Origin: a bacterium
GTDB taxonomy: Bacteria > Hydrothermota > Tepidihabitantia > SM23-42 > JAOAFX01
Length of the DNA: 64,000 nucleotides
Assembly (NCBI GenBank): GCA_036796695.1
Contig: DAIRCK010000015.1
Location: forward strand, 438 to 64,437
Direction: 5' to 3'
Part shown: positions 29,174 to 47,880 of the stretch, one piece after another
How the letters are laid out: each line of letters begins with the position of its first letter
How positions within the stretch are numbered: position 1 is the first letter of the stretch
Made by a program: the position numbers and the translations under genes
Notes under the pieces: generated by a model
Told to the model about the DNA's origin: nothing
The model's database searches: none
The model's input: only the letters and a program-made list of their open reading frames with translations

Positions 29174-29193
29174 ATTACCTCCTTTAACTATTA

Positions 29194-29219
29194 GATTCAA
29201 ACAGATTTATGCGGATTCA
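29194..29219. promoter_or_regulatory. acd/etf upstream box, copy b: GATTCAAACAGATTTATGCGGATTCA
   Basis: Lies 20-45 nt upstream of the acd start at 29173. Confidence 0.45.
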
Positions 29220-29272
29220 CACTGATTATTATTCGTTCACATCCCCAGCTCATCTTTTTGAATTCATATTTT

Positions 29273-29663
29273 TTATACAGACTTACGCCTTACTAAGCGA
29301 ATATACTCTAATTCAGGACTTCCAAAATTCACAAGCAACCCCACTTCGTAAGGCGAAGCCTTTAATTGAGAAATTAACTGTTCACGGAAAACTTTCGGTA
29401 AAAATTCAACCGCTTTCAATTCAAGAATAACTTTACCATCTATCACCAAATCAAGAAGAAATTTCCCAATTATCTTATTGTTATATTTGATATTTATCAC
29501 TTTCTCTTTTTTCGTACGGTATTTTTTGCTCATTTAATTCAATCTCTATCGCTCGCTGGTAAACCTTTTCGGGGAAACCACAACCAAGTGTTTTATGAAC
29601 CTTAAATAATATTCCAATTATTTTATATGTTAAATCTTTATAAAGCAATTTATCTGAATGCAT
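29273..29663 (-). pseudogene. GxxExxY-family protein gene split by a frameshift
   Basis: Two overlapping ORFs (29481-29663 and 29273-29533). Together they cover a GxxExxY protein (GCGFPEKVYQRAIEIEL .. LELKAV .. GLLVNFG). The frame changes in an A/T homopolymer near 29480-29530. Confidence 0.5.
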
Positions 29664-29675
29664 TATTTATCCGTT

Positions 29676-29703
29676 TGAATTCGCTAAAATCTGTTTGAAT
29701 CGG
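29676..29703. promoter_or_regulatory. acd/etf upstream box, copy c: TGAATTCGCTAAAATCTGTTTGAATCGG
   Basis: Lies downstream of acd 29713-30834, in opposite orientation to copies b and d. Confidence 0.4.
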
Positions 29704-29712
29704 TAGTATTTT

Positions 29713-30834: not shown

Positions 30835-30939
30835 GATTCACCGCCTTTTTATCTTTTAAAAATCTCCCTCTTTAATTTCAAGGTGTGCCTCCTGTTAGGT
30901 AAAACCTCTTGGTAAGATAATCCTCTTTTGAAAAGAGAT

Positions 30940-31176
30940 TTAGAATCGTTTTCTGCTCTGTACTAAGAATTTTCTCTTCCTGGGCCATAACAAAAATTCC
31001 AAAAATCTTTTTGTCTCGGGGTCCATAAAAAGTTTCTTCCAGTATTTTCTGACTAATCTCTCGCTCAGTTTTTCACCACCCAATCCATAGTTAATCATCT
31101 GCTGGATCTTCCAGATTTTATACCCTTCCGGGTCTTCTTTTTTGAATTTCTTTTCATCAACAGACCAGTTATACAT
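30940..31176 (-). CDS. hypothetical small protein (78 aa)
   Basis: ORF only. Confidence 0.3.
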   Translation of the reverse strand: MYNWSVDEKKFKKEDPEGYKIWKIQQMINYGLGGEKLSERLVRKYWKKLFMDPETKRFLEFLLWPRKRKFLVQSRKRF

Positions 31177-31298
31177 AATTTCTCAATAGTGATTATTAAT
31201 GTAATGGTTTACACTGCATTTCGTTCCAGTTAAAGATACTCATTACCTTTAAATTTTATATATATTTGCCGAAAAAAATATTCAATTTTAAAATGATA

Positions 31299-32387
31299 TT
31301 AACCGAGTAATTCTCTTGCGATTTTCTCTTTCAAGACAAAGTTAGGTAGTCCCAAGACCTGGATTGTCTTTGCATCCCGCAGATAACGTTCCACTGGGTA
31401 ATCCTTTGTATAACCATAACCACCAAAAATCTGAACTCCCTTAATCCCGCAATAGAATGCGGCCTCGGTGTTTGAAACAAAAGCAAGTTTAACTGCCATT
31501 TTGTAGTCTTCTTTTGAATCATACCTATTTGCTGCATCATATAAAAGATTCCTTGATGATTCAATCTTTATCTTCATCTCTGCAAGCATCTCTTGAACCA
31601 TTGGAAATTCACAGATTGGTCTATTAAACTGCCGACGCTCTTTTGCATATTTTGTTGAAGCATCTAATGATGCCTGGGCAATGCCAAGACCTACTGCGGA
31701 AAGGCAGAGATTAAAATAATCTCTTATCTCCTTTGTAGCAGTATCATATTCCGGATTATCAAGTAAACAAAAACCATCAGGAATTTCGAAATTTTCAAAC
31801 GAGATATCAGCAACCCCTGAAGACCTCATCCCCAGTAGATAAGGATTTGTAACTCTGAATTTGTCAGAAGATTCAATGAGATATAGACTCCGGCCATTTT
31901 CAGTTTTTATATCTAATAACAAAAATTTTGCAAATGCACCATTTAAGACAAAACGGCTTCTACAATCTATCTTCAAAGGATTGTGGGAGATAATCTGAAG
32001 ATTCTTATCAAAGTCAATATCAATTCCACCCAGTTCACCATTACCAAGGCGTTTAAGATAAGTTTTTGATTTTTCATTTTGGGATTTCATCAAAGAATAG
32101 GCAACGAGACCATTATTTACCGCAATAACCAGTCCGACTGAAGCACAGACCTTTGACAACTCCTCAATTATTATGCATAAACTTGTGGTGTCAAATCCTG
32201 CTCCACCAAATTCTTGAGGAATTATTGGCGATAATATGCCGAGTTCATTTAGTTTCCTAAAAATCACTTCAGGGATACTTGCATTTTTTTCTATTTCCTG
32301 AACAATCGGCTCTATCTCCTGAAGGGTAAATTTCTTCACTTCATTCTGAATCATCTTCTGCTCATTGTTAAGATTGATTAAACCCAT
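31299..32387 (-). CDS. divergent acyl-CoA dehydrogenase-like protein (362 aa)
   Basis: Has the ACAD fold signature (GGYGYTKDYPVERYLRDAK) but a divergent N-terminus and middle domain. ATG with RBS AGGAG. Confidence 0.75.
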   Translation of the reverse strand: MGLINLNNEQKMIQNEVKKFTLQEIEPIVQEIEKNASIPEVIFRKLNELGILSPIIPQEFGGAGFDTTSLCIIIEELSKVCASVGLVIAVNNGLVAYSLMKSQNEKSKTYLKRLGNGELGGIDIDFDKNLQIISHNPLKIDCRSRFVLNGAFAKFLLLDIKTENGRSLYLIESSDKFRVTNPYLLGMRSSGVADISFENFEIPDGFCLLDNPEYDTATKEIRDYFNLCLSAVGLGIAQASLDASTKYAKERRQFNRPICEFPMVQEMLAEMKIKIESSRNLLYDAANRYDSKEDYKMAVKLAFVSNTEAAFYCGIKGVQIFGGYGYTKDYPVERYLRDAKTIQVLGLPNFVLKEKIARELLG

Positions 32388-32650: not shown

Positions 32651-34630
32651 TTGGTAGTAATGAAACGCCGCTTTTTCCCCTTACAAACAAAGTTGATTTT
32701 AAGTTTCTCCACAGTTATAATTATCGGGATATTCTTATCGACCTTTACCGGCATACAGATAATTGGGAATACAATAGTGGCACAGGGACAGGAAAAGGTT
32801 AAACTTGATTTAAATACTGCAAGAGAAGTTCTTGAAGAGGAAAAAAGGACGATAAAAAACATACTCAGATTGACCGCGAGCCGTTATTTTGTAAAGGATG
32901 CCCTTATTAAAAGAGATCGCATTTTTTTATTAAAAGAATTGAGAACGGTTAAAACTGATGAAAACCTGGATATATTAAATATCACAGACAATCTCGGCCG
33001 TATAATACTACGCGTGGAAAATCCAGAATATTGTAATGATTTTCCGGAAAATGAAATTTTAAAAAAAGTCTTAAAACAAAAAGAAAGCATATATGGAGTT
33101 CTAATAATATCCGAAGAAGAACTTAAAAAAGAAAGCGAGAAACTTGCTGAACGAGCAAAAATTAAAATACTACCCACACCCAAGGCAAAACCCCGTAATG
33201 ATACATTAGAAACATCCGGGTTGATTATTATTGCCGGGGCACCGATCTTTGATGATAATGGTAATCTCATCGGTGTTGTCTATGGTGGTAGATTATTAAA
33301 CAGGAATTTTGACATTGTAGATAAAATAAAGGATATTGTTTATAAAGAAGAAAAATTTAGAAAAAAAGAGATTGGCACAGCAACGATCTTCCTCAAGGAC
33401 CTTCGAATAACAACAAATGTTCGTGATATCACCGGACAAAGGGCTATCGGCACAAGGGTATCAGAAGAAGTATACAACCAGGTTTTAGTAAATGGCAGAC
33501 CCTGGGTCGGCAGGGCGTTTGTGGTAAATGACTGGTTTATTACGGCATACGAACCGATCCGGGATATAAATAATCAGATCGTTGGTATCCTGTATGTTGG
33601 AATGCTTGAGGCACCTTATGTATATCTAAAGAACCGTGTTATCTCAATATTCATTCTTATTGCAGTTCTAAGCATTATTGCGCTTGCAATAATTTCGTTC
33701 GTTACAGTAAAACGTATCACCAGACCGATAAATGAATTATATCAACTTACTGAAAGGGTTTCAAAGGGTGACCTCTCAGCACGAGCGAAGATTAGTTCAG
33801 ATGATGAAATTGGAGAATTGATAAAATCATTTAATCAAATGATTGATTCCCTTCAAAATGTTACCGAAGGCTACGTCAATCTTACCAAAACCCTTGAACA
33901 GAAGGTTCAGGAAAAGACAAACGAACTGGAAAAGGCAATGGAACAGTTAATCCAGAATGAAAAATTATCCGCCCTTGGCAGGCTTGCTGCAGGTATTGCC
34001 CACGAAATCAATAATCCGCTGACCGCAATCCTAATCAATGGCCATCTGATAAAAGAAAAGGTAAAAGGAGATACCAAACTATCAGAAAAACTTGATATGA
34101 TTATTGATGAGACACAACGGTGTGCAAAGATTGTAAGCGGACTTTTGGAATTTTCACGCCAGACACCACCTGAAATGAAACTTATCTCTATAAATGAAGT
34201 TATTAATAAAACACTCATCCTCTTTGAAAGCGTTTTTCTTGCCAATAATGTGAAAGTTGAAATCTCCCTTGATAAAAATCTATCTCAAATTATGGCGGAT
34301 GAGAGTAAAATAAAACAAGTATTGACGAATATTCTACTAAATGCACTTGACGCAATGCCCAACGGCGGGATTCTAAAAATTTATTCTCAACTTTCTTTAG
34401 ACAATAAATTTGTAGAAATAGAAATCGAAGACTCGGGTATAGGCATACCAGAGGAAAATCTGGATCGCATATTTGACCCTTTCTTTACAACAAAAAAATC
34501 AAAAGGAACAGGACTTGGGTTATCAATAAGTTATGGTATTATCCAGCAACATAATGGAAGTATTGAAGTAAATAGTGAAGTCAATAAAGGAACAAAAGTT
34601 AAAATAAAATTGCCTATATTAGAAAATTGA
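32651..34630 (+). CDS. sensor histidine kinase with a periplasmic Cache-like domain, HAMP, HisKA and HATPase (659 aa)
   Basis: Two TM helices flank a periplasmic region of about 290 aa. H-box AHEINNPL. The N box and G1/G2 boxes are present in the C-terminal ATPase (DSGIGIP, GTGLGLS). Confidence 0.85.
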   Translation: MVVMKRRFFPLQTKLILSFSTVIIIGIFLSTFTGIQIIGNTIVAQGQEKVKLDLNTAREVLEEEKRTIKNILRLTASRYFVKDALIKRDRIFLLKELRTVKTDENLDILNITDNLGRIILRVENPEYCNDFPENEILKKVLKQKESIYGVLIISEEELKKESEKLAERAKIKILPTPKAKPRNDTLETSGLIIIAGAPIFDDNGNLIGVVYGGRLLNRNFDIVDKIKDIVYKEEKFRKKEIGTATIFLKDLRITTNVRDITGQRAIGTRVSEEVYNQVLVNGRPWVGRAFVVNDWFITAYEPIRDINNQIVGILYVGMLEAPYVYLKNRVISIFILIAVLSIIALAIISFVTVKRITRPINELYQLTERVSKGDLSARAKISSDDEIGELIKSFNQMIDSLQNVTEGYVNLTKTLEQKVQEKTNELEKAMEQLIQNEKLSALGRLAAGIAHEINNPLTAILINGHLIKEKVKGDTKLSEKLDMIIDETQRCAKIVSGLLEFSRQTPPEMKLISINEVINKTLILFESVFLANNVKVEISLDKNLSQIMADESKIKQVLTNILLNALDAMPNGGILKIYSQLSLDNKFVEIEIEDSGIGIPEENLDRIFDPFFTTKKSKGTGLGLSISYGIIQQHNGSIEVNSEVNKGTKVKIKLPILEN

Positions 34631-34673
34631 TTTTAAAATCTATTTCTGTGATAAAATAAAAAAGGGGGTATAA

Positions 34674-35429
34674 ATGGATCAAAAGAAATTTAAAATTTTG
34701 GTTGTTGATGATGAGATAACTGTATGTAAAAGTATTACAAGTGCCCTTGAAGATTTTGACTATGTAGTCGATATGGCACTGAGTGGTGAAGAAGCAACTT
34801 TTAAACATAATAAAAACCATTATGATTTGGTCATTGCAGATTTAATGATGCCGGATATAACAGGCATTGAATTGCTGAAAAGAATAAAAGCAACAACTCC
34901 TGAGGTTCAGTTTATTCTCATAACCGGTTATCCATCAATAAAAACTGCTGTTGAGGCTATAAAATTCGGGGCATTTGATTATATACCAAAACCATTCACG
35001 CCTGATGAATTAAGAAGTATAATAAATCGCGCCCTTGATTATTATAAAAAGGAAAAAATTGAACTAATGCCCGTGCCTGCAGACTATTACTGCATAACAG
35101 ATAATTCCTGGGCAGAAATTGAAAAAGATGGCAATGTCAGAATTGGTGCCCATGAAAGACTGGTTAAAGGAATTAAAGAAATCTCAATGTTAGAATTTCC
35201 ATCCATTGGTGAAATGCGATATCAGGGTGAAGCCTGCGCAAGGATAAATACGGGTGCTAATCAAATATACAGGGTATGGACTCCAGTTTCCGGAAAAATA
35301 ATTAAAATAAATCAAGACCTTAATAAGAACTACAGTAAATTAATTACTGACCCCTATAATGAAGGCTGGTTGTTGATAATACAACCAACAAACTTAGAAT
35401 CGGATTTAAAAAATCTGACCAGATGCTAA
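34674..35429 (+). CDS. response regulator: REC domain fused to a glycine-cleavage-H-protein-like domain (251 aa)
   Basis: REC has VVDDE and the phospho-acceptor Asp in VIADLMMP. The C-terminal region of about 120 aa (VRIGAHERLVKG..GEACARINTGANQIY..DPYNEGWLLI) aligns with GcvH/lipoyl-fold proteins. The lipoyl-lysine position is not Lys. No HTH. Confidence 0.8.
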   Translation: MDQKKFKILVVDDEITVCKSITSALEDFDYVVDMALSGEEATFKHNKNHYDLVIADLMMPDITGIELLKRIKATTPEVQFILITGYPSIKTAVEAIKFGAFDYIPKPFTPDELRSIINRALDYYKKEKIELMPVPADYYCITDNSWAEIEKDGNVRIGAHERLVKGIKEISMLEFPSIGEMRYQGEACARINTGANQIYRVWTPVSGKIIKINQDLNKNYSKLITDPYNEGWLLIIQPTNLESDLKNLTRC

Positions 35430-35430
35430 A

Positions 35431-38400
35431 TTGAATTCATTCGATATTGAAAAATTATTTAAAAAAATTCAGCTCTTACTTAAAAATTATGATTGCTATG
35501 ATGTTTATTTCTTAGATAACAAAGGCAAATGGAATAAAAACCCAGAGACCCTTAAAGACATAATCTCAAGTGAAGTCTGGTTCCGTATATGGGCATCATC
35601 TCGTTGTTCTAATAATGAAGAAACCCTTGATCTTTTTAAGCCCATCTTAAATAATGCCTATTTTCAAGACTTAATGAGTAAATTCACAAATATTGCAGAT
35701 GGAATGGAAATTGATATAACCGACACGCTAATTACCTTTGAAATCTTATACGTCCTAATTGAATACCAGATATACATATTGAATACTGAAAAATATATTC
35801 CGGATTGGAATTATCAAGAAAAGAAAATACAGAATGAATATCTTATAAGATTGGATAATTTTAAGAAAAATCTAAAAAATATTTTGAGTGATCCGATATT
35901 GTTTGATAGTTTTTTTCACATTCATAAAGAATTAACAAAGAACAACCTCTTCAATTCCATTTCAGTAACAATCAATGAAGAAATCAAATTTTATGAACAA
36001 CAGATTTTACATAAAGCAAAACTTGAAGAACCAAGAAAAATCACTCAAATTTATAATTTTTTGAGTAATAAAATAGATTTTGATATCGCTTCTGCTGTAA
36101 CCAAGAAACAGGCTCTTATCAGACCATTTTTAAGAGCACTAAATGATGCTACAAATCTTGTTCCAGTTGGTTTACAATTTGAAATTGTCTCAATCCTTGG
36201 TGCGTTAAAAGATCCGAGGTGTGCAAGAACCCTGTTCAACCTTTTGAAAAATACGAGTCTTGAATATATAAATCTCATATCAAATATTATATACACATTA
36301 GGAAATCTCCAGTTTAACGAGATGTCTGAATATTTAAAAATGATTCTCCAGTTACCTGATTACATTGATCTTTCTTCAGGATACAAACAGCCTATTTACG
36401 ATATAAAATCCGAAACGATTTGGTCTACCGGCAAACTTGGCATCTCAGGAATAAATCTCATCAATGAAATGGTAAAATACATATCTCACAAGGATAATAT
36501 AATAAAAATCGCGCTTGCCTGGGCAATGGCAATGATTGGTATAAAAGAGAAGAAAGAAGAAGGTGTCGTTGATCTTGAAATTCTCACAACTTTATTAGGA
36601 CTCCTGAAAGATAAAGATAAAAAGGTATTTGAAGAATCTATCTATGGTTTAAAAGTCTTAGGATTTTATGAACTCATTGATAATCTGAATCTAAACAATA
36701 TTCCAGCAACACCCATACTCGCTCTCAAGCCAAGCAGTATTGGTCTTTATGAACTCTCTGAAACTATTTATCATCTTGTTAATCTGAAAAAACCTGTTGT
36801 TATAGCAGTCACTGGAGATTCGGGCACAGGAAAGACTTATTTTTGTGAATCAATCAGATATGGTTTTGGTGACATTTCAAAAGATGATATACTTTATCTA
36901 ATGAGGGATAATCCTGCTCACCGAACAATATTCAGCAGGATGATTGATAAAAAATTCACAAAAGATTTTCTCGATCCACAATATTATACCATTGAAACAA
37001 TGGATGAAAGAAATCTTGAACCGTTTCAGGGTTTTTTTGACTTCATAAGACAAAATAGCCACAAGAAATTAATTATCCTTGATGGCTGGCTTGATGAGAT
37101 ATATTTTTATCAGGTTCTTAAGACTTTTTACATATATAGCTATCTTGATTGTATAATAAACTTCAGGGCAACATATTCAACAAGGAGAATCAATCTGGAG
37201 GAAAGAGAAGGAATCCTGGAACGGGTCAGAGATTGTTTAAGGTTTGTTGAGAATCCACCTATCGAAGAAACTGAATTTTATCGCAATGGTGATGTCTTTG
37301 TTTATAATCTTGATAACTCTATTGGTTCACGCCTCAGTGCTGATGAAATCAAAGAAGTCTTCAGTAGAAAAAAGGTCAGATTATGGGCCGAGCATATCCG
37401 AATTGGAAATTTTGAAAAGGAACTGAGAGAATTAAAAATCACAGAAGAAACTTTGAACAGACGGACCGAAGATTTTGTAATACAAAATGACGGTAAAATA
37501 GAAAGCGAAGAAGAAGCAATAGAAATATATAACGAACATTTTTTTAGAATAATTAATAGTGATATAGTTGAAAAGCCGATCCTGCTTCAGAAAATAAGAT
37601 TAAAAAAATCCATTCCAGAAAAAATATCGCGTTATGCACCAGGTGTAATTGCCTACCATAATACTAATGGCATTGTCGGTATATTAACTGGAATTAATGA
37701 CCAGAATTATTTTACGCAGATTAAAGAAAATAAAATCTATGATCACTGCATTTATAATGATTTGTTCTTTGCAATTGGAGAGGAAAGTAAAATCTATGCG
37801 TTTGATTTTAGTAAAAATCTTTTGAGAACCTTAAAAATATCAGCCTCTCCCCTATCTGCAATTGCTACCGACCGGAATAATATCATTGCCACCGGACATC
37901 AGGATGGAACAATAAGATTATGGGATATTAACTCAGAGATGACGTACCTGCTCAAAGGACATAAGAATTCAATAATCAGTATCGTGATTGATAAGAAAGG
38001 TATAATTGTATCAAATAGTAGTGATGGCGAATTGAGATTATGGAATTTACATAAAAATTCAATAAAAATATACAATAATATGAATTTTAACACCAACCTG
38101 ATAGGTCTGGAACGACCCTCAGGTAACATAATTTTTGTTAAAAGAAATAATGTTGTAAGATTAGACCCAGAAAATGAAACAGTAAAAATAATTTCTTTAC
38201 CGAATTACATTGAACCAATTGCATTCTGTCCCTATTATGACGGCAGAATATTCGCAGGTTATAGAAAAGAAGATAGAACATATTTTATCGTTATTGAATT
38301 TAAAAAAGACAAAGGATTTTACAATACCATCAGGATTGATATAAATAAAATTAATGGTATAACGGCAATGGGACCCAGGATTATCATATCTGGTATGGAC

Positions 38401-38520
38401 AACGATGGAGCAATCATAGAGATTCTGGGTAGTGAAGACTATGTCCGGGGCGAGATTGAAAAACTAAAGATTCTCAAGAATTCAAAACGTCGTTTTCAAT
38501 ACCATAGTATGATATTCTGA
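35431..38520 (+). CDS. large multidomain protein: HEAT-like repeats, PRK/uridine-kinase-like P-loop domain and a WD40 beta-propeller (1029 aa)
   Basis: HEAT/PBS-lyase-like repeats (ALAWAMAMIGIKEK..LLGLLKDKDKK). Walker A VIAVTGDSGTGKTYF matches the PRK/UK family; hhhhDG at KLIILDGWLD. WD repeats (GHQDGTIRLWDINS, SDGELRLWNLH). TTG start 2 nt after the regulator stop. Confidence 0.7.
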   Translation: MNSFDIEKLFKKIQLLLKNYDCYDVYFLDNKGKWNKNPETLKDIISSEVWFRIWASSRCSNNEETLDLFKPILNNAYFQDLMSKFTNIADGMEIDITDTLITFEILYVLIEYQIYILNTEKYIPDWNYQEKKIQNEYLIRLDNFKKNLKNILSDPILFDSFFHIHKELTKNNLFNSISVTINEEIKFYEQQILHKAKLEEPRKITQIYNFLSNKIDFDIASAVTKKQALIRPFLRALNDATNLVPVGLQFEIVSILGALKDPRCARTLFNLLKNTSLEYINLISNIIYTLGNLQFNEMSEYLKMILQLPDYIDLSSGYKQPIYDIKSETIWSTGKLGISGINLINEMVKYISHKDNIIKIALAWAMAMIGIKEKKEEGVVDLEILTTLLGLLKDKDKKVFEESIYGLKVLGFYELIDNLNLNNIPATPILALKPSSIGLYELSETIYHLVNLKKPVVIAVTGDSGTGKTYFCESIRYGFGDISKDDILYLMRDNPAHRTIFSRMIDKKFTKDFLDPQYYTIETMDERNLEPFQGFFDFIRQNSHKKLIILDGWLDEIYFYQVLKTFYIYSYLDCIINFRATYSTRRINLEEREGILERVRDCLRFVENPPIEETEFYRNGDVFVYNLDNSIGSRLSADEIKEVFSRKKVRLWAEHIRIGNFEKELRELKITEETLNRRTEDFVIQNDGKIESEEEAIEIYNEHFFRIINSDIVEKPILLQKIRLKKSIPEKISRYAPGVIAYHNTNGIVGILTGINDQNYFTQIKENKIYDHCIYNDLFFAIGEESKIYAFDFSKNLLRTLKISASPLSAIATDRNNIIATGHQDGTIRLWDINSEMTYLLKGHKNSIISIVIDKKGIIVSNSSDGELRLWNLHKNSIKIYNNMNFNTNLIGLERPSGNIIFVKRNNVVRLDPENETVKIISLPNYIEPIAFCPYYDGRIFAGYRKEDRTYFIVIEFKKDKGFYNTIRIDINKINGITAMGPRIIISGMDNDGAIIEILGSEDYVRGEIEKLKILKNSKRRFQYHSMIF

Positions 38521-40040: not shown

Positions 40041-40057
40041 AAAACTTAATAACAATA

Positions 40058-40088
40058 AAAAGGGCACGCAGTTGCGTGCCCTTTTTTC
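40058..40088 (+). terminator. rho-independent terminator after gdhA
   Basis: GGGCACGCAGTTGCGTGCCC followed by TTTTTT. Confidence 0.7.
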
Positions 40089-40139
40089 TGCAGTGCTATT
40101 GACTTTCAATTATAATTCAATTATAATAAATTTAGTAAT

Positions 40140-40511
40140 ATGAATCTTTCTAATATTAAAGAAATCCTTAATGCAAAAATTCTTACCAATTATGTTTCGC
40201 TGGAGATTGATGTTAAAAATGTAATTGCATCAGACCTGATGAGCGATGTCTTAAATAGTAAGAATCCTGCGGATTTACTCTTAACCGGATTGATTAATAC
40301 CCAGGCTATAAGGACCTGTGAGATTGCAGGGATAAAGGCAATTCTGTTTGTTAAAGGTAAAACCCCAGATGAAGAGACGATAAAACTTGCTGAATCCTGT
40401 AATATTCCATTGCTTTCCTGTTCTCTCTCTATGTTTGAAGCCTGCGGGATATTATATTCATATGGTCTCATCTACCCTGATTCAAAGAATGGAAACAGAA
40501 ATAATCCTTAA
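40140..40511 (+). CDS. DRTGG-domain protein (123 aa)
   Basis: Similar to the 42193-42543 protein and to DRTGG domains (LLLTGL..AIRTCE..AILFVKG). Confidence 0.6.
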   Translation: MNLSNIKEILNAKILTNYVSLEIDVKNVIASDLMSDVLNSKNPADLLLTGLINTQAIRTCEIAGIKAILFVKGKTPDEETIKLAESCNIPLLSCSLSMFEACGILYSYGLIYPDSKNGNRNNP

Positions 40512-40932
40512 TGAGGAGTTTGAAATTACCGGTGGTGATTTCATAAATGGTGGAGCTGCCTCCTGCAGGGTTAAGAATATTCTTAAAGAGATCGGACTTG
40601 CACCAGAAATCATCCGCAGGGTTGCAATCGCATCTTATGAAGCAGAAATGAATGTTGTAATGTATGCAAAAAAAGGAATAATGAAACTTATTCTGACATC
40701 TGATAAAATAATCATAAAGGTTGATGATGAAGGACCAGGGATACCCGATATAGAGTTAGCAATGCAACCCGGGTATTCAACTGCGACGCCAGAAATAAGA
40801 GAGATGGGCTTTGGTGCAGGAATGGGTTTACCAAATATAAAGAAGAACGCTGATATTTTTAATATAAATTCTACGGTTGATAAAGGAACAAACCTTGAAA
40901 TAATTATAAACCTGAATACCAAAAATGACTGA
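40489..40932 (+). CDS. small histidine-kinase-like ATPase (anti-sigma-factor/Ser-protein-kinase type)
   Basis: HATPase_c-like (DDEGPGIP, GFGAGMGL). The internal ATG at 40489 is the preferred start; the track begins at 40387. Confidence 0.6.
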   Translation: METEIILNEEFEITGGDFINGGAASCRVKNILKEIGLAPEIIRRVAIASYEAEMNVVMYAKKGIMKLILTSDKIIIKVDDEGPGIPDIELAMQPGYSTATPEIREMGFGAGMGLPNIKKNADIFNINSTVDKGTNLEIIINLNTKND

Positions 40933-42196
40933 ACCAATATACCATTCAATTAAAATAAACGAAACAAAATGCATTGGCTGTGTCGTATGTATGAAAGCCT
41001 GCCCGACCAAGGCAATTAGAATCAAACAGAGGAAGGCACGGGTTATTGCTGAACGTTGCATTGATTGTGGTGAATGTCTCAGGGTCTGTCCATATAATGC
41101 AATAACCCCTTTAACCACCCAGTCTTCAGATATCAATCGTTTTAAAATGAAGATTGCCCTACCCAGTCCGGTAATCTATTCACAATTTGGTTCTGAGGTT
41201 ATGCCCTATCAAATTCTCAATGCATTAAAAGAGCTGGGTTTTGACTATGCCTTTGACGAAGCACTTGCCTGTGAGATGGTATCTATCGCTATACAGGAGT
41301 ATCTTGTAAGAAATCCCCTGCCAAGACCAATAATTTCATCAACCTGCCCGGTCGTGGTCCGACTTATACAGAGATTATTCCCGGGTCTCGTATCATTGAT
41401 AATCAAAATGGAACCACCAAGGGAGATTGCAGCCAAAAATTTAAGAAAAGAATTATCCAGGGAATATAAAATTCCTGAGTCTGATCTCGGTATATTCCAT
41501 ATTACACCCTGTCCTGCAAAGATGGTTTCTATAAACAGGCCTGAAACTATGGAAAAATCATATCTTGATGGTGCAATTTCAATAAAAGAAATTTATAACC
41601 AGGTGATGGCACGTTTAAAAAAGAAAGAAAAAAAATTTTTGTTGCATACACAGAGCCAGGTTAGCGGTATTGGTATTGGTTGGGCAATCTCAGGTGGTGA
41701 GATAAGGGGTATAAAGGGTGATTCTGTGGTTTCAGTTTCTGGTGTCTATGATACAATAAAAATTCTGAGTGATGTAGAAAGTGGAAAGATAAAGAATATT
41801 GATTACCTTGAATGCCTCATCTGTCCTGACGGTTGTATTGGTGGACCTTTAACAGTAGAAAATAGATTCCTGGCAAAAAGCACCATTCTCAGCCTGATTA
41901 GACAGTTTGGCGGAAAAAACCGGATTGATACCAATTATGTCCGACAACTATACGAGAAAAATTTCTTTTCGTTTGAAAGGGATATAAAACCAAAACCATT
42001 CCCGCCCCTTGACCCAAATAAAAATGAAGCGATAAAAAAACTGAAAAAGAAAGAAAAAATACTAAAAAACCTGCCCGGCATCAACTGTGGGGTCTGTGGT
42101 TCACCAGATTGTGAATCATTTGCCGAAGACCTTGTCCGCAATGAACAGGGACTTACAGTTGGTAGGTGTGTATTCTTAGGAGAATCAAATCTATGA
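40925..42196 (+). CDS. [FeFe]-hydrogenase-like protein (putative sensory, HfsB/HydS type) with an N-terminal 2x[4Fe-4S] ferredoxin and a C-terminal extra Cys cluster
   Basis: Ferredoxin motifs CIGCVVCMKACP and CIDCGECLRVCP. H-domain motifs L1 ISSTCP (canonical TSCCP), L2 ITPCPAKM (MPCxxK) and L3 ECLICPDGCIGGP (ExMACxGGCxxGGGQP). C-terminal CGVCGSPDC..C. Confidence 0.75.
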   Translation: MTEPIYHSIKINETKCIGCVVCMKACPTKAIRIKQRKARVIAERCIDCGECLRVCPYNAITPLTTQSSDINRFKMKIALPSPVIYSQFGSEVMPYQILNALKELGFDYAFDEALACEMVSIAIQEYLVRNPLPRPIISSTCPVVVRLIQRLFPGLVSLIIKMEPPREIAAKNLRKELSREYKIPESDLGIFHITPCPAKMVSINRPETMEKSYLDGAISIKEIYNQVMARLKKKEKKFLLHTQSQVSGIGIGWAISGGEIRGIKGDSVVSVSGVYDTIKILSDVESGKIKNIDYLECLICPDGCIGGPLTVENRFLAKSTILSLIRQFGGKNRIDTNYVRQLYEKNFFSFERDIKPKPFPPLDPNKNEAIKKLKKKEKILKNLPGINCGVCGSPDCESFAEDLVRNEQGLTVGRCVFLGESNL

Positions 42197-42543
42197 AGAT
42201 ATTAAAACTTGCCGAAATAATAAAAAATTTAAACCTGAAGATAGAATATGGTGAAAAATATAAAGACCGCGATGTTAGCGGTGGATATGTGAGCGACCTC
42301 TTGAGTGATGTAATGGCAAATGCGAAAAAGGGTGATATATGGATTACTTTGCAGACACATCCTAATATCGTAGCAGTTGCAGTTTTAAAAGAAATATCTG
42401 GGATCATTATTGTTGGCAATCGCAAACCTGAACCTGAAACTTTAAAAAAAGCAGAACAGGAAAAAATCCCGATAATGACGACCGAATTATCCGGCTTTGA
42501 GATTGTAGGAAGATTGTATGAGATGGGCATAGGTGCGACCTGA
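42193..42543 (+). CDS. DRTGG-domain protein (about 116 aa)
   Basis: Has a DRDVSGGYVSDLLSDVM motif. Its ATG overlaps the stop of the hydrogenase-like gene (ATGA). Confidence 0.6.
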   Translation: MKILKLAEIIKNLNLKIEYGEKYKDRDVSGGYVSDLLSDVMANAKKGDIWITLQTHPNIVAVAVLKEISGIIIVGNRKPEPETLKKAEQEKIPIMTTELSGFEIVGRLYEMGIGAT

Positions 42544-42557
42544 TAACCATTAGCAAT

Positions 42558-43403
42558 ATGCTAAAATGTTACCGTGCCGACCTCCATATCCATACCTGCC
42601 TCTCACCCTGTGCAGATTTGACGATGTCACCGAAAAGATTGGTAGAAAGGGCAAAGGTTAAGATGCTGGATATCATTGGGATATGTGATCATAACTCGGC
42701 TGAGAATATCCAATATGCTATAAATGCTGTAAGAACGCCTCACCTTAATCCTTTTCCTGTTAAAACGGGGAGAGAGAAGGATGGGGGGATGGACTGCAGG
42801 CACAGTCAGCCATTTCGTATGGCGGATTTTCCCTGTCCGTCTTTAACAGTGCTTCCTGGTATGGAAATCTGCACAAAAGAAGAGGTTCATATTCTCGGGA
42901 TCTTTGATGAACTAAGTGCAGTGTTGAAATTGCAGGAACTCGTTTATCAGTCATTACCAGAAGAAAAAAATAATCCTGAATTATTTGGCGAACAGATTAT
43001 TGCCAACGAGTTTGACGAGGTTGAAGGTTATAATGAAAGGTTGCTTATAGGTGCATCCAGTTTATCCATAAAAGAGGTTGTTGATGAAATACATAGACTC
43101 AGAGGTATAGCAATCGCCTCACATATTGACCGTGAGAGTTTTAGTGTTATCAGTCAACTGGGATTTATTTCTGAGGAATTAAATTTTGATGCCTTAGAAA
43201 TCTCCCCAAATATTACAATAGAAGAAGCAAATAGAAAATTTCCTGAAATCAAAAAATTTCCCATAATACAAAATTCTGATGCCCATTTCCTTGAAGATAT
43301 TGGAAAGGCGAACACTGATTTTTATATTCAAGAGCCAACAATAGAAGAAATAAGAATGGCATTACTCAATGAAAAAGGCAGGAGGATAAGTTACCAATGC
43401 TAA
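42558..43403 (+). CDS. PHP-domain phosphoesterase (281 aa)
   Basis: N-terminal ADLHIHTCLSPCAD and GICDHNS form the PHP His-rich metal site. Confidence 0.8.
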   Translation: MLKCYRADLHIHTCLSPCADLTMSPKRLVERAKVKMLDIIGICDHNSAENIQYAINAVRTPHLNPFPVKTGREKDGGMDCRHSQPFRMADFPCPSLTVLPGMEICTKEEVHILGIFDELSAVLKLQELVYQSLPEEKNNPELFGEQIIANEFDEVEGYNERLLIGASSLSIKEVVDEIHRLRGIAIASHIDRESFSVISQLGFISEELNFDALEISPNITIEEANRKFPEIKKFPIIQNSDAHFLEDIGKANTDFYIQEPTIEEIRMALLNEKGRRISYQC

Positions 43404-43605
43404 ATTCTAAATCCCAAATTCTAATCCACCGAACTGTGTGGTGGACTAAACAAATTCCAATTATCAAACTTTACAATTTCCCAAACATTTTTAAATATTG
43501 GAATTTAGGATTTAAATATTGTTTAGAAATTGGTGCTTGGTCCGCCACTCTTCCGCCAATCAGTGTGGTGAATGGTGGTTTGGAATTTAAATTTTTGGGT
43601 GTCTG

Positions 43606-44157
43606 ATGCAGGACTTATCTCTCCATATCTTAGATATTGTGGAAAATTCCATAGATGCAGGAGCAACGAAGATTGAAATTATGATTGATGAAGATATTGA
43701 ACATAATCAATTGAAAATCAAAATAAAGGACAATGGCAAGGGAATGGATAAAGAAACATTGAAAAAGGTTCTCGACCCATTTTACACGACAAAGACCGTA
43801 CGTCGGGTAGGAATGGGGTTATCACTATTTGCCCAAACAATCCAGGAGGCAGAAGGTAAGATTGTAATAAAATCTAAACTTAAAAAAGGAACATCGGTCA
43901 GTGCCACATTAAAGTATAACCATATAGACCGGAAACCAATGGGCAATATGATAGAAACAATAATGGCACTATTAGCAACAAAGGCACACGACATAGACTT
44001 TATATATGTTCACAGAAAAAATAAAGAGGAGTTTATATTGAATACAAAAGAGATAAAGAAAGAACTGGATGGTGTTATGATAAATGAACCTGAGGTTCTA
44101 AAATTTTTAAGAACCCAAATTAAAAAGGGTTTGAAGGAAATAGGTGTGGCGGTATGA
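43606..44157 (+). CDS. stand-alone histidine-kinase-like ATPase (183 aa)
   Basis: N box HILDIVENSIDAGA, G1 DNGKGMD, G2 GMGLSL. Confidence 0.7.
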   Translation: MQDLSLHILDIVENSIDAGATKIEIMIDEDIEHNQLKIKIKDNGKGMDKETLKKVLDPFYTTKTVRRVGMGLSLFAQTIQEAEGKIVIKSKLKKGTSVSATLKYNHIDRKPMGNMIETIMALLATKAHDIDFIYVHRKNKEEFILNTKEIKKELDGVMINEPEVLKFLRTQIKKGLKEIGVAV

Positions 44158-44798
44158 ATAAGGCGCTGGAAAACAGAATTAGCGGACAACCACAAGGGTT
44201 GTCCCTACATAATAAAATCCCCAATGTAGGGACAGGGTTTATCCCTGTCCGAATTAAAAAAAGCAATGTAGGGACAGGGCTTGTCCCTGTCCGAAAAAAC
44301 GGACAGCCACAAGGGCTGCCCCTACATAATAATATTTATCCAAAACGAAAAAACCCACGACTAAAAGGCTTTGACTATGCCTTACCTTATGCATATTTTA
44401 TTACAATTTGTGCCTTTAATAAAAATAATTACTTTGTTAAAAAAAACTTAAATACAAAAATAGTAGATTGCCTTGTCTATGAAAAAAACAGAAGGAATTT
44501 TATTATCTTTGCCTATTGTCTAATGCCTAATCATCTACATTTGCTTGTTTCACCTGGAAATTCAAAAATTAGCGTATCAAAATTCATTGGGGGATTTAAA
44601 AGCAAAACAACACGTATCGCCTGGGATAATGGCATTAAAAAATTATGGCAAGACAGGTTTTATGACCATATTTTACGGAAAAACGAGGATTTAAGGGAAA
44701 TTGCCTATTACATTTTGAACAATCCTGTGAGAAAGAGACTGGTTAAATCTTTCGAAGAATATGAGTTTTGCGGAGTGATAGATGAGATACCGATATAA
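44154..44798 (+). CDS. REP-associated tyrosine transposase (RAYT, IS200/IS605-like Y1 HUH family)
   Basis: HUH motif CLMPNHLHLLV. C-terminal REIAYYILNNPVRKRLV is the Tyr-helix of RAYTs. The N-terminal 57 codons of the track ORF read through the REP array. The functional start is probably near 44334, possibly non-ATG. Confidence 0.7.
   Translation: MNKALENRISGQPQGLSLHNKIPNVGTGFIPVRIKKSNVGTGLVPVRKNGQPQGLPLHNNIYPKRKNPRLKGFDYALPYAYFITICAFNKNNYFVKKNLNTKIVDCLVYEKNRRNFIIFAYCLMPNHLHLLVSPGNSKISVSKFIGGFKSKTTRIAWDNGIKKLWQDRFYDHILRKNEDLREIAYYILNNPVRKRLVKSFEEYEFCGVIDEIPI
44183..44325. repeat. REP (repetitive extragenic palindrome) cluster, 5' side of the RAYT gene
   Basis: Four palindromes, each bounded by GTAG: CGGACAACCACAAGGGTTGTCCCTAC; GTAGGGACAGGGTTTATCCCTGTCCGAA; GTAGGGACAGGGCTTGTCCCTGTCCGAA; CGGACAGCCACAAGGGCTGCCCCTAC. 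Confidence 0.7.
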
Positions 44799-44801
44799 AA
44801 A

Positions 44802-44905
44802 TGTAGGGACAGGGTTTATCCCTGTCCGAATTAAAAAAAGCAATGTAGGGACAGGGCTTGTCCCTGTCCGAAAAAACGGACAACCACAAGGGTTGTCCCT
44901 GCTGA
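44802..44905. repeat. REP cluster, 3' side of the RAYT gene
   Basis: The same three palindromes as the 5' cluster, in the same order. Confidence 0.7.
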
Positions 44906-44940
44906 AATCAGTAAAATAAAAATAGAAAAAGGAGAGAACA

Positions 44941-45324
44941 ATGAAAAAACTTAAGATTGGTGACCTTGAAAAAATAAGGGAAAAGGTCGCCCGAACAAAG
45001 GTCTTGAGAGAAGGTAAAGCAAGGGCGCGGATAACGGTTCATATGGGAACCTGTGGTATTGCTGCAGGTGCCCGGGATATCTTAAGTGCCATAATGGAAG
45101 AAATTGAAAAGAAGAAAATAACAGATGTTATCGTCACGACTTCTGGATGTGCTGGACTATGCAGTCGTGAGCCAATGGCGACTGTAGAACTTGTTGATAA
45201 ACCACCGGTCAAATATGTGGATTTGACTCCGGAAAAGATAAGAAAGATATTCGCCGAACATATTCTTAAAGGGAATATCGTGACCGAATATGCCCTTGCT
45301 GTAGGAAGTGAGACAACACATTAA
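44941..45324 (+). CDS. thioredoxin-like [2Fe-2S] ferredoxin (NuoE/HndA-like), 127 aa
   Basis: Cys pattern GTCGIAAGA .. TSGCAGLCSREP. RBS AAAGGAG. Confidence 0.7.
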   Translation: MKKLKIGDLEKIREKVARTKVLREGKARARITVHMGTCGIAAGARDILSAIMEEIEKKKITDVIVTTSGCAGLCSREPMATVELVDKPPVKYVDLTPEKIRKIFAEHILKGNIVTEYALAVGSETTH

Positions 45325-45449: not shown

Positions 45450-47111
45450 TTATCTAAATATATCAATCTTTCTCGCCAGAACTGCCTTACCACGATATTC
45501 GGGAAATAAAATCGGTGCCTTTCGTGTCGTAATTATGCCTGCCTCTGCCATCATCTTTTTATATTTTTTAAGATGTTCAAGTGTTAGTTTACCAAACTGC
45601 GGATTTGACTTCAAATATTCTGCAGTTGATATGCCTGCTCTCCTACCAAAAACAAGACAGTCAAGTGTAGAGTTACCCATCAATCTATTTTTTCCATGCA
45701 CACCACCAGAGACCTCACCTGCAACCCATAACCCTTCTATATTCGTCCTTCCCCAGGGATCGGTTTCAACACCACCGTTCTGATAATGTAAAGTTGGAAA
45801 TACAAGCACAGGATCTTTTCTTATATCAATGTCAAATCTTTTATATAGACGGAGCATCCCAGGAAATGCCTTTTCTATCGTTCCAGGACCATTTTTCAGA
45901 TCAATCAACGGAGTATCAAGCCAGACCCCACGCATCCCTGTTGGCGTAACAATCCCTTTACCATTAACATAACATTCCTTGATAAACGAAGCTGCCTCAA
46001 CATCCCTTGGTTCAAGCGGATATACAAATGCCTCACCATCAATATTTATTGGCTGGGCACCCATACCCCTTAATTTCTCTGTCAATAATAATCCTATTAT
46101 CTGTTGTGGATATGCAGCACCTGTGGGATGATACTGGACCGTATCAGTATCCCTGAGTTTTGCACCAACACGATAAGCAAGGACAATTCCATCTGCTGTT
46201 GCACCGTAATGATTGGTCGTTGGAAATCCCCTTATATGCAATCTGCCAAAACCACCCGTGGCAAGTATAATTGCCTTTGCCTGGACTATTTTATAATCAC
46301 CTGTTTCAAGATTATAAAGAATTGCACCAGTTACTCGATTACCATCAGTTAAAAATTCAATCACGGGATAAAATTCAATATATGGTATCTGGCGACACCT
46401 GAATTCATCTCTTAAGACCCGCAACTCTTCCAGACCAGTATAATCTTTACAGGCATGCATTCTCAATCTTGAACCGCCCCCAAATGCCTTTTCTACAAAA
46501 CTACCGTCCGGATTTCTATCGAGCATCGCACCAAGATTACAGAGCCACTCCATCACAAAAGGTGCATCATTTACCAGTGCCTCTACAACCTCTGGTTTAT
46601 TCGCAAAATGACCACCACCGATAGTATCTATGTAATGAATCAACGGCGAATCATTCTCTCTATCCGCAGCCTGAGTTCCACCTTCAGCCATCATTGAATT
46701 CGAATCACCATGGCGCAACTTGTTTACCAATAGAATATTTTCTGCCTTTACACCATTGTCATTAGCAAGTAATGCTGCTGCTGTTCCAGCAAGTCCACCA
46801 CCGATTATTAAAAGATCAACAGCATAATCAGGGTTGGTTATGGTGAATTGTTCGGGGTCGATCAATGGATTTGCCTCTATGAGATCTACTACTTCATTGG
46901 GTGCAAGGTCTCCTGCATTCGGTCCAAATAATAGTTGTCTTTTTCCACCAGGTGCATAATCAGGATGGCACAATTTCAAGACCTCTTCCCTTTCTGCCAT
47001 AGACATTGCTTTAGGTGTATAATCCTTTCTCTGCGGCCTTGTTTTATTCACCACATCAATGAGTTTGCGCATATATTCAGGATAACCACCGATAAATTTT
47101 AGTTCTGCCAT
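45450..47111 (-). CDS. fumarate reductase/succinate dehydrogenase-family flavoprotein, non-covalent FAD type, with a 95-aa N-terminal extension
   Basis: Dinucleotide fold DLLIIGGGLAGTAAAL. Active-site residues QYHPTG and LHYQNGGV. GGVHGKNRLMGNSTLDCLVFG present. Asn replaces the FAD-linking His (NSMMAEGG). RBS AGGAGG. Confidence 0.75.
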   Translation of the reverse strand: MAELKFIGGYPEYMRKLIDVVNKTRPQRKDYTPKAMSMAEREEVLKLCHPDYAPGGKRQLLFGPNAGDLAPNEVVDLIEANPLIDPEQFTITNPDYAVDLLIIGGGLAGTAAALLANDNGVKAENILLVNKLRHGDSNSMMAEGGTQAADRENDSPLIHYIDTIGGGHFANKPEVVEALVNDAPFVMEWLCNLGAMLDRNPDGSFVEKAFGGGSRLRMHACKDYTGLEELRVLRDEFRCRQIPYIEFYPVIEFLTDGNRVTGAILYNLETGDYKIVQAKAIILATGGFGRLHIRGFPTTNHYGATADGIVLAYRVGAKLRDTDTVQYHPTGAAYPQQIIGLLLTEKLRGMGAQPINIDGEAFVYPLEPRDVEAASFIKECYVNGKGIVTPTGMRGVWLDTPLIDLKNGPGTIEKAFPGMLRLYKRFDIDIRKDPVLVFPTLHYQNGGVETDPWGRTNIEGLWVAGEVSGGVHGKNRLMGNSTLDCLVFGRRAGISTAEYLKSNPQFGKLTLEHLKKYKKMMAEAGIITTRKAPILFPEYRGKAVLARKIDIFR

Positions 47112-47121
47112 TTTACTCCTC

Positions 47122-47880
47122 CTATTCCTTCTCTATGTCGCGAGAAGTATAGATTTTCCTCAATTCTTCAATCGGGGCAGTCATCAATCTCTTAAGTTCT
47201 GATTCGTATTTTCCCTGTTTTAATTCTTCAAGCCTTTTTTTAAGATGTTCAGGGATTGGCATTCCATATTTACCAAACAATCTCCTTCCTAACTGGGCAT
47301 AATTATATTGTGCGAGTTCAGCAGGACAACGAATTGAGCATAATCCACACATTATACAATCAAATGAAATCTCAGCCATCTTTTCAACATCCCCTCTTTT
47401 TCCGCAGGCAATATATTCCATCACATCAATATCCTGAGGACAGGCTTTGGTACAGGTATTACAACCAAGACACTTTAATATTTCTGGATAAACCTTTAAA
47501 AATGCCTCAATTCCCGGGCTCAACTGGTTTATATCATAATTTGCACGCTGGGCAGGGGTAAAAGGAATCTGGACAAGATACATTCCGTCCTCAGCCCGGG
47601 TTTGACAGGCGAGTGCAGTTTTCAATCGGTAATCACCTTCAATTCTATAAACTGTGGTGCAGGCACCGCAGAATCCTGCACGGCAACCACAGGACCTTAT
47701 AAATCTATATCCTGCAAATTCCATTGCCTGCATAATAGTTAAACCTGCAGGCACGCGATACTTTTTTCCCATAATTGAAATATTTATCCAATGTTGAATA
47801 TCTTTCTCATCAATCCCGGTCACTACAGACTTATTCGCCTCAGCAATTTCATCCATAATATTCTTTTTTTCCTCAGCCAT
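47122..47880 (-). CDS. fumarate reductase/succinate dehydrogenase-type iron-sulfur subunit (252 aa)
   Basis: SdhB-like [2Fe-2S] motif CRAGFCGAC. Two CxxCxxCxxxCP motifs. RBS AAGGAGG. Confidence 0.75.
   Translation of the reverse strand: MAEEKKNIMDEIAEANKSVVTGIDEKDIQHWINISIMGKKYRVPAGLTIMQAMEFAGYRFIRSCGCRAGFCGACTTVYRIEGDYRLKTALACQTRAEDGMYLVQIPFTPAQRANYDINQLSPGIEAFLKVYPEILKCLGCNTCTKACPQDIDVMEYIACGKRGDVEKMAEISFDCIMCGLCSIRCPAELAQYNYAQLGRRLFGKYGMPIPEHLKKRLEELKQGKYESELKRLMTAPIEELRKIYTSRDIEKE

Follow-up and report, generated by a model that had tools for sequence, protein, structure and literature searches.

Positions 40140–45324 of the window, the whole 64-kb stretch of DNA analysed here, are on balance best explained as the signalling cassette of a group D [FeFe]-hydrogenase-like protein (HydS) in an uncultured bacterium of candidate division WOR-3, together with the hisK-hydD pair of genes that accompanies Bfu (NuoEF-type bifurcating) enzymes. 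The organism was placed in WOR-3 by the names that its closest homologues bear. Domains were assigned with Pfam, curated cutoffs were checked with NCBIfam and structural matches came from a PDB sequence search. The order DRTGG, anti-sigma-like HATPase, [FeFe]-hydrogenase-like protein, DRTGG, PHP, HATPase, which an earlier note on this DNA had read from the letters and a list of open reading frames (ORFs), was confirmed by Pfam. Together with the ferredoxin gene that follows, the cassette consists of seven genes, all on the plus strand:

40140–40511, plus strand: DRTGG-domain protein 1, 123 aa (Pfam PF07085, E 2e-6)
40489–40932, plus strand: SpoIIAB/RsbW-like GHKL ATPase (HATPase_c_2 by Pfam), 147 aa, a putative serine kinase
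40925–42196, plus strand: [FeFe]-hydrogenase-like protein HydS, almost certainly of group D (M2e, TamHydS-type), 423 aa (two Fer4 domains, Fe_hyd_lg_C and the FeS domain PF04060)
42193–42543, plus strand: DRTGG-domain protein 2, 116 aa (PF07085, E 9e-8; Hpr_kinase_N, E 3e-5), conserved in position
42558–43403, plus strand: PHP-family phosphoesterase, 281 aa (Pfam PHP and PHP_C), metal-binding motifs intact
43606–44157, plus strand: GHKL ATPase (HATPase_c, Pfam E 5e-18), 183 aa, without a HisKA domain, conserved in position, the 'hisK' of Bfu operons
44941–45324, plus strand: thioredoxin-like [2Fe-2S] ferredoxin, 127 aa, HydD-type (Pfam 2Fe-2S_thioredx)

Several adjacent genes overlap by 4–23 nt. 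The HATPase_c_2 gene overlaps its two neighbours by 23 and 8 nt, and its start at 40489, which gives the 147-aa product, is backed by relatives and by an independent assembly. The start of the second DRTGG gene and the stop codon of hydS share an ATGA overlap. The best PDB match of the HATPase_c_2 ATPase was the anti-sigma F factor SpoIIAB (E 6e-6), and its N, G1 and G2 boxes are seen in the sequence; it scored 48.8 bits with the NCBIfam spIIAB model, which is under that model's cutoff. The PDB sequence search with the second DRTGG protein (42193–42543) returned no match.

HydS is made up of two N-terminal [4Fe-4S] motifs, an H-domain (Fe_hyd_lg_C, E 6e-28) and a C-terminal four-Cys domain, and Pfam found no PAS domain in it. 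The L1 motif of the H-domain, SSTCP, aligns with TSCCP of the Desulfovibrio desulfuricans hydrogenase (DdH), so that the proton-relay Cys is replaced by Thr, as the earlier note had proposed. In the alignment to group A enzymes L2 is TPCPAK in place of MPCxxK and L3 is ECLICPDGC. Cys299 thus corresponds to T141, Met353 to T194 and Met497 to Leu. As the L1, L2 and L3 motifs could be aligned with solved group A enzymes, we conclude that the four Cys ligands of the H-cluster (C300, C355, C499 and C503 of CpI) and K358 are retained; they are strictly retained across phyla in the HydS proteins of related cassettes. The extra C-terminal four-Cys motif described in the earlier note was also found (PF04060), with the spacing Cx2Cx4Cx18C; its two-residue insertion relative to Cx16C also occurs in the 89% identical relative.

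These are the traits of M2e or group D proteins, which lack Cys299 and a PAS domain and have a hydroxyl residue at position 353, N-terminal clusters and a C-terminal Cx2Cx4Cx16C motif (PMC8163306, PMC13104023). Comparison of HydS with TamHydS of Thermoanaerobacter mathranii revealed 40% identity over 413 residues (E 7e-110), reaching into the C-terminal cluster domain. For this comparison the TamHydS protein was rebuilt from an OCR (optical character recognition)-damaged coding sequence in the paper's supplement, and its numbering reproduces C20, D378, C379, E392, D393, D403 and C404. The conserved group D residues R30, R32, K35, R42, E392 and D393 correspond to R32, K34, K37, R44, E401 and D402 of the window protein. 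The match of HydS to solved group A structures was only partial (E ~1e-19), and it fell far below the NCBIfam cutoff of every catalytic-hydrogenase model. We know of no solved group D structure.

The H-domain phylogeny that the earlier note had proposed was built by neighbour joining from 251 columns, with TamHydS, cassette proteins from eight phyla, three HydA (A3) sequences drawn from clostridial loci, a fragment of DdH and a relative with a HisKA fusion; support was taken as bipartition counts over 100 bootstraps. In this tree, which holds no PAS-type group C and no group B references, the window HydS fell in the TamHydS clade and was split from group A in 100/100 bootstraps. We therefore place it in the group D (M2e, TamHydS-type) family with high confidence, and its motifs support a non-catalytic, putatively sensory type. 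The earlier note had seen features of sensory group C/D enzymes rather than catalytic ones, and this can now be narrowed to group D/M2e.

The window protein and TamHydS share the two [4Fe-4S] motifs, the H-domain, the C-terminal four-Cys domain and the lack of PAS, and in both C299 is absent, M353 is replaced by a hydroxyl residue and M497 by Leu. They differ in that the C299 position is Thr in the window and Ala in TamHydS, in the spacing of the last Cys (Cx18C rather than Cx16C) and at D378 and D403, which are N and R in the window.

The earlier note had likened the region to hfsABCD, and that assignment did not hold. In published hfs clusters HfsA is a partial hydrogenase-like protein, HfsB a PAS-hydrogenase (group C, a homologue of HydS of R. 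albus), HfsC a PP2C-type serine phosphatase and HfsD a ferredoxin-linked catalytic hydrogenase (PMC11837493, PMC5707799). Pfam found no PAS, PP2C or second Fe_hyd_lg_C domain in the window cluster, and an Hfs-type cluster was rejected because PAS-hydrogenase, PP2C phosphatase and catalytic hydrogenase are all missing from it. There are likenesses to the group C systems, namely hfsABCD of Thermoanaerobacterium saccharolyticum, RaHydS and TmHydS: each has a hydrogenase-like protein without the proton-relay Cys but with an extra C-terminal cluster, and a proposed role in sensing H2 and controlling fermentation. However, group C proteins include a PAS domain and have PP2C phosphatases or Ser/Thr kinases, and a catalytic hydrogenase (HfsD/HydA2), as linked partners, none of which is in this cluster. 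The proper comparison is with the cassette upstream of hydABC(D) in Thermoanaerobacter-like Clostridia. Two clostridial loci (L084 and L085) have the same DRTGG, ATPase, PHP, ATPase and thioredoxin-like ferredoxin genes flanking hydS as the window. Unlike the TamHydS locus, the window has no downstream HydABC; its WOR-3 relatives pair the cassette with a NuoF::GltD/GltB-like enzyme, the window with none, and in WOR-3 NuoE lies upstream of the cassette and not within it.

The cassette was compared with 86 related loci. Exact-protein look-ups with the two closest homologues supplied six of them and a genome scan the other 80, and their genes were labelled by phmmer with the window proteins and the neighbouring genes of relatives as queries. 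The full order DRTGG, ATPase, HydS, DRTGG, PHP, ATPase was present in 51 of the 60 loci with enough flanking sequence, and these span WOR-3, Stahlbacteria, TA06, Aminicenantes, Coatesbacteria, Gemmatimonadota, Thermodesulfobacteriota and Clostridia. The position of the first DRTGG gene is conserved in 80 loci. A NuoF-type gene lies within 10 kb of the cassette in 33/38 well-flanked loci; in the other five, all from other lineages than that of the window, the cassette is an 'orphan' with no nearby NuoF gene. By Pfam, the enzyme next to the cassette differs between lineages. In the two clostridial loci NuoE, the ATPase, the thioredoxin-like ferredoxin and NuoF are followed by a full group A3 HydA. 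The neighbour is a molybdopterin Fdh-like BfuA with a GltD-like protein in L036 and L068, and an NfnA-type subunit in L032. In WOR-3 and Aminicenantes it is a 1025-aa NuoF::GltD fusion accompanied by a Fer2/Fer4 protein of 229 aa and a GltB-like protein of 527 aa, and glutamate dehydrogenase (GDH) genes often lie at one or both ends. As the neighbouring enzyme varies by lineage in this way, we conclude that the cassette tracks the Bfu family and not hydrogenases alone.

The set of NuoE, NuoF::GltD, Fer2/Fer4 and GltB-like (Glu_synthase) genes bracketed by GDH genes, as at 14313–20110 of L002 and in many WOR-3 and Aminicenantes loci, is of interest in itself. It seems to encode an enzyme of Bfu type that is connected with glutamate metabolism, and we did not find this gene set described in the Bfu literature searched.

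In some loci components of the cassette are fused. DRTGG::HATPase_c_2 fusions occur in L031 (6555–7388) and L033 (3122–3901) and a DRTGG::HydS fusion in L059 (9581–11254), which supports a physical association of the cassette components. A HydS-like protein is fused to HisKA-HATPase_c in L050 (2066–4153). Long PHP/HydS fusions in Aminicenantes loci were rejected as ORF-extension artefacts in high-GC DNA. A second, paralogous mini-cassette adjoins the main one in L031 and L033. A literature search for DRTGG with hydrogenase gave nothing relevant.

The last two genes, for the second ATPase and the ferredoxin, match the hisK-hydD pair of Bfu operons, the products of which are reported not to belong to the holoenzyme (Schut et al. 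2022, PMC9304861). As in that pair and the HydD of tetrameric HydABCD, a GHKL ATPase without HisKA is followed by a small thioredoxin-like [2Fe-2S] protein; unlike it, the window pair is split by an insertion, described below, and has no adjoining bfuABC. In 32 of 56 related loci the HATPase gene is directly followed by the thioredoxin-like ferredoxin gene. The ferredoxin has only three cysteines, and Cys38, Cys70, Cys74 and His107 are invariant in 46/46 homologues, which suggests Cys3His ligation of its cluster or metal site. Its best PDB matches were the N-terminal domains of NfnB/HydB (BfuB) subunits (E 4e-15). Because of these matches and the three Cys and one His that are invariant, we consider it HydD-like. 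Of the 'NuoE-like [2Fe-2S] ferredoxin' of the earlier note, the thioredoxin-like [2Fe-2S] part therefore stands, while the likeness is to HydD and the BfuB N-terminal domain instead of to NuoE/BfuC.

How such a cassette might work is suggested by TamHydS, which has high affinity for H2, low turnover, a stabilised reduced state and a secondary-structure change induced by H2 (PMC8163306, PMC13104023). With Thr at the Cys299 position the proton relay of HydS would be blocked, so that its H-cluster would react slowly with H2, stay reduced and report H2 pressure rather than turn over. HydS would report H2, or the coupled ferredoxin/NADH poise, by a conformational change. The DRTGG proteins and the SpoIIAB-like kinase, with which HydS is fused in some genomes, would read this state, with PHP as the opposing phosphoesterase or reset, the whole forming a phospho-switch of a partner-switching kind. 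Sensing of H2 through such a switch is plausible, at a little short of an even chance. As the cassette has no DNA-binding domain, the output would be post-translational control of NADH/ferredoxin-linked Bfu enzymes and not transcription, the targets in WOR-3 being the NuoF::GltD/GltB-like enzyme and glutamate dehydrogenase. That this is the output is a tentative proposal and rather doubtful.

The resemblance to the SpoIIAB-SpoIIAA-SpoIIE and RsbW-RsbV-RsbU modules is a functional analogy only. The likeness lies in a small HATPase_c_2 kinase-like protein, small single-domain partners and a dedicated phosphoesterase, but the partners here are DRTGG and not STAS proteins, the phosphoesterase is PHP and not PP2C, there is no sigma factor and scores are below the curated cutoffs. 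Pfam found no STAS, PP2C or sigma factor in the window cluster, which therefore does not belong to the partner-switching modules proper, and the analogy is loose because these and a DNA-binding partner are absent.

The window differs from its close relatives in what surrounds the cassette. Relatives with a HydS 79–90% identical to that of the window have NuoE upstream and NuoF::GltD, Fer2/Fer4, GltB-like and second GDH genes downstream of the ferredoxin gene, followed by a convergent pair of genes for a fumarate-reductase-like flavoprotein and an Fe-S protein. The window has GDH immediately before the first DRTGG gene, and the convergent flavoprotein pair (45450–47880) begins 125 bp past the ferredoxin gene. 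Pfam searches of approximately 50 ORFs found no NuoE, NuoF, HydA or HydEFG in the 64-kb window. The adjacent trimeric or tetrameric Bfu/HydABC enzyme, a typical though not defining part of a group D context, is thus absent. The cis-linked effector genes would have been deleted in this lineage, and the cassette would therefore act in trans or on another target.

The flavoprotein pair, on the minus strand at 45450–47880, encodes a 553-aa FAD_binding_2 flavoprotein, for which the best NCBIfam similarity was to TfrA/SdhA/NadB, below the cutoffs, and a 252-aa Fer2_4 plus 4Fe-4S protein. It is the constant right-hand neighbour in WOR-3 and is 92–96% identical in L013 and L067.

The missing genes raise the question of whether the cassette is a functionless remnant that has been decaying since deletion of the NuoE and NuoF::GltD/GltB operon and is being colonised by REP (repetitive extragenic palindromic) sequences and their associated transposase. 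The loss of NuoE, NuoF::GltD, Fer2/Fer4, GltB-like and second GDH genes relative to the 85–90% relatives would fit this, as would the REP sequences that lie inside the PHP gene and between two genes. So would locus L067, in which the window's flanking genes are found at 85–96% identity but the cassette is fragmented, with truncated HydS and second ATPase genes and fragments of NuoF::GltD, GltB and GDH. In the window, however, all seven ORFs are intact with their catalytic and ligand motifs. Relative to the two closest relatives, ratios of non-synonymous to synonymous substitution (dN/dS) were 0.05–0.21 for all seven genes, which shows purifying selection on each of them. Nor is there a lineage-specific excess of substitutions at otherwise conserved positions, with 30 in the window and 27 and 28 in relatives that keep the effector genes. 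Orphan cassettes also occur in 5/38 well-flanked loci of other lineages. In L013, where the arrangement is duplicated and split, the effector operon is kept nearby and a second, NuoE-less cassette is directly followed by the same flavoprotein pair, the layout seen in the window. By these measures the window cassette is not decaying, and we consider a remnant very unlikely.

If the cassette is functional, HydS could still be a working metabolic hydrogenase of low rate that swaps electrons with the thioredoxin-like ferredoxin and Bfu enzymes in trans, coupling NADH/ferredoxin-linked glutamate or formate chemistry to H2 where the Bfu enzyme has no H-domain, with the ATPases and PHP serving assembly or maintenance. 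TamHydS interconverts H+ and H2 reversibly (Land et al. 2020, PMC8163306), the N-terminal two-cluster relay of HydS is intact and, of the four residues that make up the alternative proton path in TamHydS, three are kept (S256, E259 and E296). Furthermore, the adjacent Bfu enzyme lacks an H-cluster domain in WOR-3, Aminicenantes and others, so that HydS is the sole hydrogenase-like gene of these loci. On the other hand, the canonical proton relay is absent and the rates measured for TamHydS are low (PMC8163306); in Clostridia, as the cassette adjoins a full HydA, a second catalytic unit would be redundant; and the two GHKL ATPases, two DRTGG proteins and the phosphoesterase to which HydS is constantly linked suit signalling better than electron transfer. 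We regard a metabolic hydrogenase as improbable. Less probable again, and about as remote as a remnant, is a HydS that has no [2Fe] subcluster in vivo and serves as an iron-sulfur redox (ferredoxin-pool) sensor or as a scaffold. Eukaryotic Nar1-type hydrogenase-like proteins do not act as hydrogenases, the 64-kb window has no hydE, hydF or hydG, and the cassette tracks NADH/ferredoxin enzymes generally and not hydrogenases. But one 64-kb window without maturases is no guide to the whole genome, the four cysteines of the H-cluster and K358 show strict conservation across phyla, and TamHydS, the characterised member of the family, binds the [2Fe] cofactor (PMC8163306, PMC13104023).

A signalling cassette of group D type thus remains the preferred explanation, and several points weigh against it. 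The effector genes are absent from the window, and L067, the relative with the closest flanking genes, has a decaying cassette, so there may be ongoing loss of function. We know of no biochemical evidence for signalling by any group D enzyme or for phosphorylation of DRTGG proteins. PHP proteins can be nucleases, and the best matches of this one were Endonuclease Q and the PHP domains of TrlF and Ppl. An H-cluster in the window HydS is assumed, with HydEFG maturases not found in the 64-kb window, and the tree by which HydS was classed held no PAS-type group C or group B references. The cassette also has no STAS, PP2C, sigma factor or DNA-binding partner. Finally, the C-terminal cluster of TamHydS has a redox state that is unresponsive to H2 (Schumann et al. 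2026, PMC13104023).

The insertion that splits the hisK-hydD pair consists of a REP-associated tyrosine transposase (RAYT) gene between two REP arrays, and a further REP-derived sequence lies within the PHP gene:

42795–42839, plus strand: REP-derived sequence within the PHP coding region, a split copy seen in alignment with relatives
44183–44327, no strand: left REP array, four hairpins in mixed orientation (44183–44208, 44226–44251, 44268–44293 and 44300–44325)
44337–44798, plus strand: RAYT core with HUH (HLH) and catalytic Tyr motifs (NCBIfam NF047646; Pfam Y1_Tnp), in an ORF spanning 44154–44798
44803–44902, no strand: right REP array, three hairpins

The earlier note had placed a RAYT with flanking REP arrays here, and both parts were verified. 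The protein scored 104 bits with NF047646, 'REP-associated tyrosine transposase', against a cutoff of 80, and its HUH (HLH) and Tyr motifs were read from the sequence. The REPs are two related palindromes, GTAGGGACAGGGYTTRTCCCTGTCCG and its inverted variant CGGACARCCACAAGGGYTGYCCCTRC, present in four and three copies, which occur window-wide only around the transposase gene; none of the seven would be expected by chance, and 0/100 shuffles matched them. They fold with an 8-bp stem and a 5-nt loop. Of four hairpins that were folded, three gave -8 to -9 kcal/mol (z ~-4.7), and that at 44300–44325 is weaker (-5.8 kcal/mol, z -2.5). The two arrays include a direct repeat, the 101 nt at 44800–44900 being 97% identical to 44223–44323. 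The RAYT ORF can be read from an ATG at 44154, overlapping the stop codon of the ATPase gene, and runs unbroken across the upstream REP array; a canonical start codon is not obvious in it. In relatives without RAYT this ATG and the ~25 nt that follow it belong to conserved intergenic sequence, and the first ~60 codons of the ORF are read-through of this sequence and of the REPs.

The presence of the unit varies between relatives, a comparison that the earlier note had proposed. Relatives at 89–90% identity have a gap of 43–97 bp between the ATPase and ferredoxin genes, with a single REP and no RAYT. L010 and L012, with HydS proteins 81% identical to that of the window, have RAYT and REP arrays at the same junction, their RAYT ORFs being 56–62% identical to that of the window over the whole ORF and the flanking ATPase ~70%. 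Since RAYTs are found at this junction in L010 and L012 and are missing from the 89–90% relatives, we conclude that it is a long-standing or recurrent REP/RAYT site, polymorphic for presence and absence. The 'recent insertion' suggested in the earlier note does split genes that are normally adjacent, but, given the RAYT at the same junction in L010 and L012, it is not clearly recent.

Within the window, REP copies are limited to this locus and the remnant in the PHP gene. The latter is part of an in-frame insertion of ~36 aa (42732–42839) derived from the REP family found on either side of the RAYT. At the homologous place in its PHP gene L008 carries a perfect REP, and the insertion is shared, with varying length, only by the closest relatives and is missing in more distant ones. 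Elsewhere in relatives the same REP occurs at 4942–5125 of L012, inside the PHP gene of L008 and in L041. REPtrons, the REP/RAYT systems of Escherichia coli and Pseudomonas, likewise have a single Y1 (HUH) transposase gene amid arrays of short palindromes, which are in both orientations and have a 5' GTAG. The window system differs in its WOR-3 host, in the tolerance of one REP in-frame inside a protein-coding gene and in a RAYT ORF that is open through the upstream array without an obvious canonical start. REP elements can thus settle within the cassette, even in-frame in a coding region.

The remaining features of the locus are possible signals and a spacer:

40057–40086, no strand: terminator-like hairpin, 13-bp stem, 3' of the GDH gene, dividing GDH from the cassette
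40099–40127, plus strand: promoter-like site TTGACT-17-TATAAT, 11/12 consensus matches, 13 nt 5' of the first cassette gene
43404–43605, no strand: variable spacer that separates PHP from the second ATPase and contains hairpins and short repeats

The promoter-like site is a consensus match only, and the number of such sites in the region is not above that in shuffles. An Rfam scan of 38.5–48.2 kb returned sub-threshold matches only, at the GDH terminator. The spacer is AT-rich, with short direct repeats (AAATTCTAAATCCCAAATTCTAATCC) and second-type GC hairpins (TCCACC...GGTGGA, TCCGCC...). It was considered as a conserved RNA or regulatory element and rejected, being poorly conserved even among 85–90% relatives.

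Upstream of the cassette, 32651–38520 encodes a histidine kinase of sCache/HAMP type, a fusion of a response regulator with a glycine-cleavage H-protein domain (34674–35429) and a 1029-aa protein that has WD40 beta-propellers in the annotation of relatives. L001/L002 and L067 keep this trio, likewise upstream of the cassette. Evidence has implicated H-protein in the making of the bridging ligand of the H-cluster (PMC11736057), and the response regulator::H-protein fusion may be of interest for that reason. Farther away, 6432–16667 and 25956–32387 include genes for methylmalonyl-CoA mutase, MeaB, carboxyltransferase and biotin carboxylase and for electron transfer flavoprotein and three acyl-CoA dehydrogenases. 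These sets fit an amino-acid or propionate-type fermenter, the catabolism of which would be H2-sensitive. A low-GC stretch (~0.32) at 219–5416 with genes for a tyrosine integrase, a DNA methylase and a member of the aminoglycoside-2''-adenylyltransferase family is possibly an integrated mobile element. It has no adjoining tRNA gene, the sole one in the window being tRNA-Ala at 62724–62798.

The cassette described here is a well-preserved copy of an already known, mechanistically unsolved kind, and its value is comparative. Signalling by group C/D [FeFe] hydrogenases is an open question that the window itself does not answer, and the 2026 paper on TamHydS asks explicitly for interaction partners (PMC13104023). 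We did not find a link between the group D cassette and non-hydrogenase bifurcating enzymes stated in the literature searched. It is conceivable, though on present evidence unlikely, that the HydS cassette, rather than regulating hydrogenases alone, is a general post-translational switch that responds to H2 or redox state and serves the Bfu family as a whole (HydABC, NfnABC, Fdh-like and NuoF::GltD/GltB-like), with DRTGG and the SpoIIAB-like ATPase as direct partners of HydS, and that the free-standing sensor of the window tunes glutamate or amino-acid fermentation in trans. The window shows that the cassette can persist under selection without neighbouring enzyme genes. The comparison also yields candidate partners for group D proteins, in the form of a six-gene cassette found in at least eight phyla, its DRTGG::ATPase and DRTGG::HydS fusions and its linkage to Bfu enzymes that are not hydrogenases.

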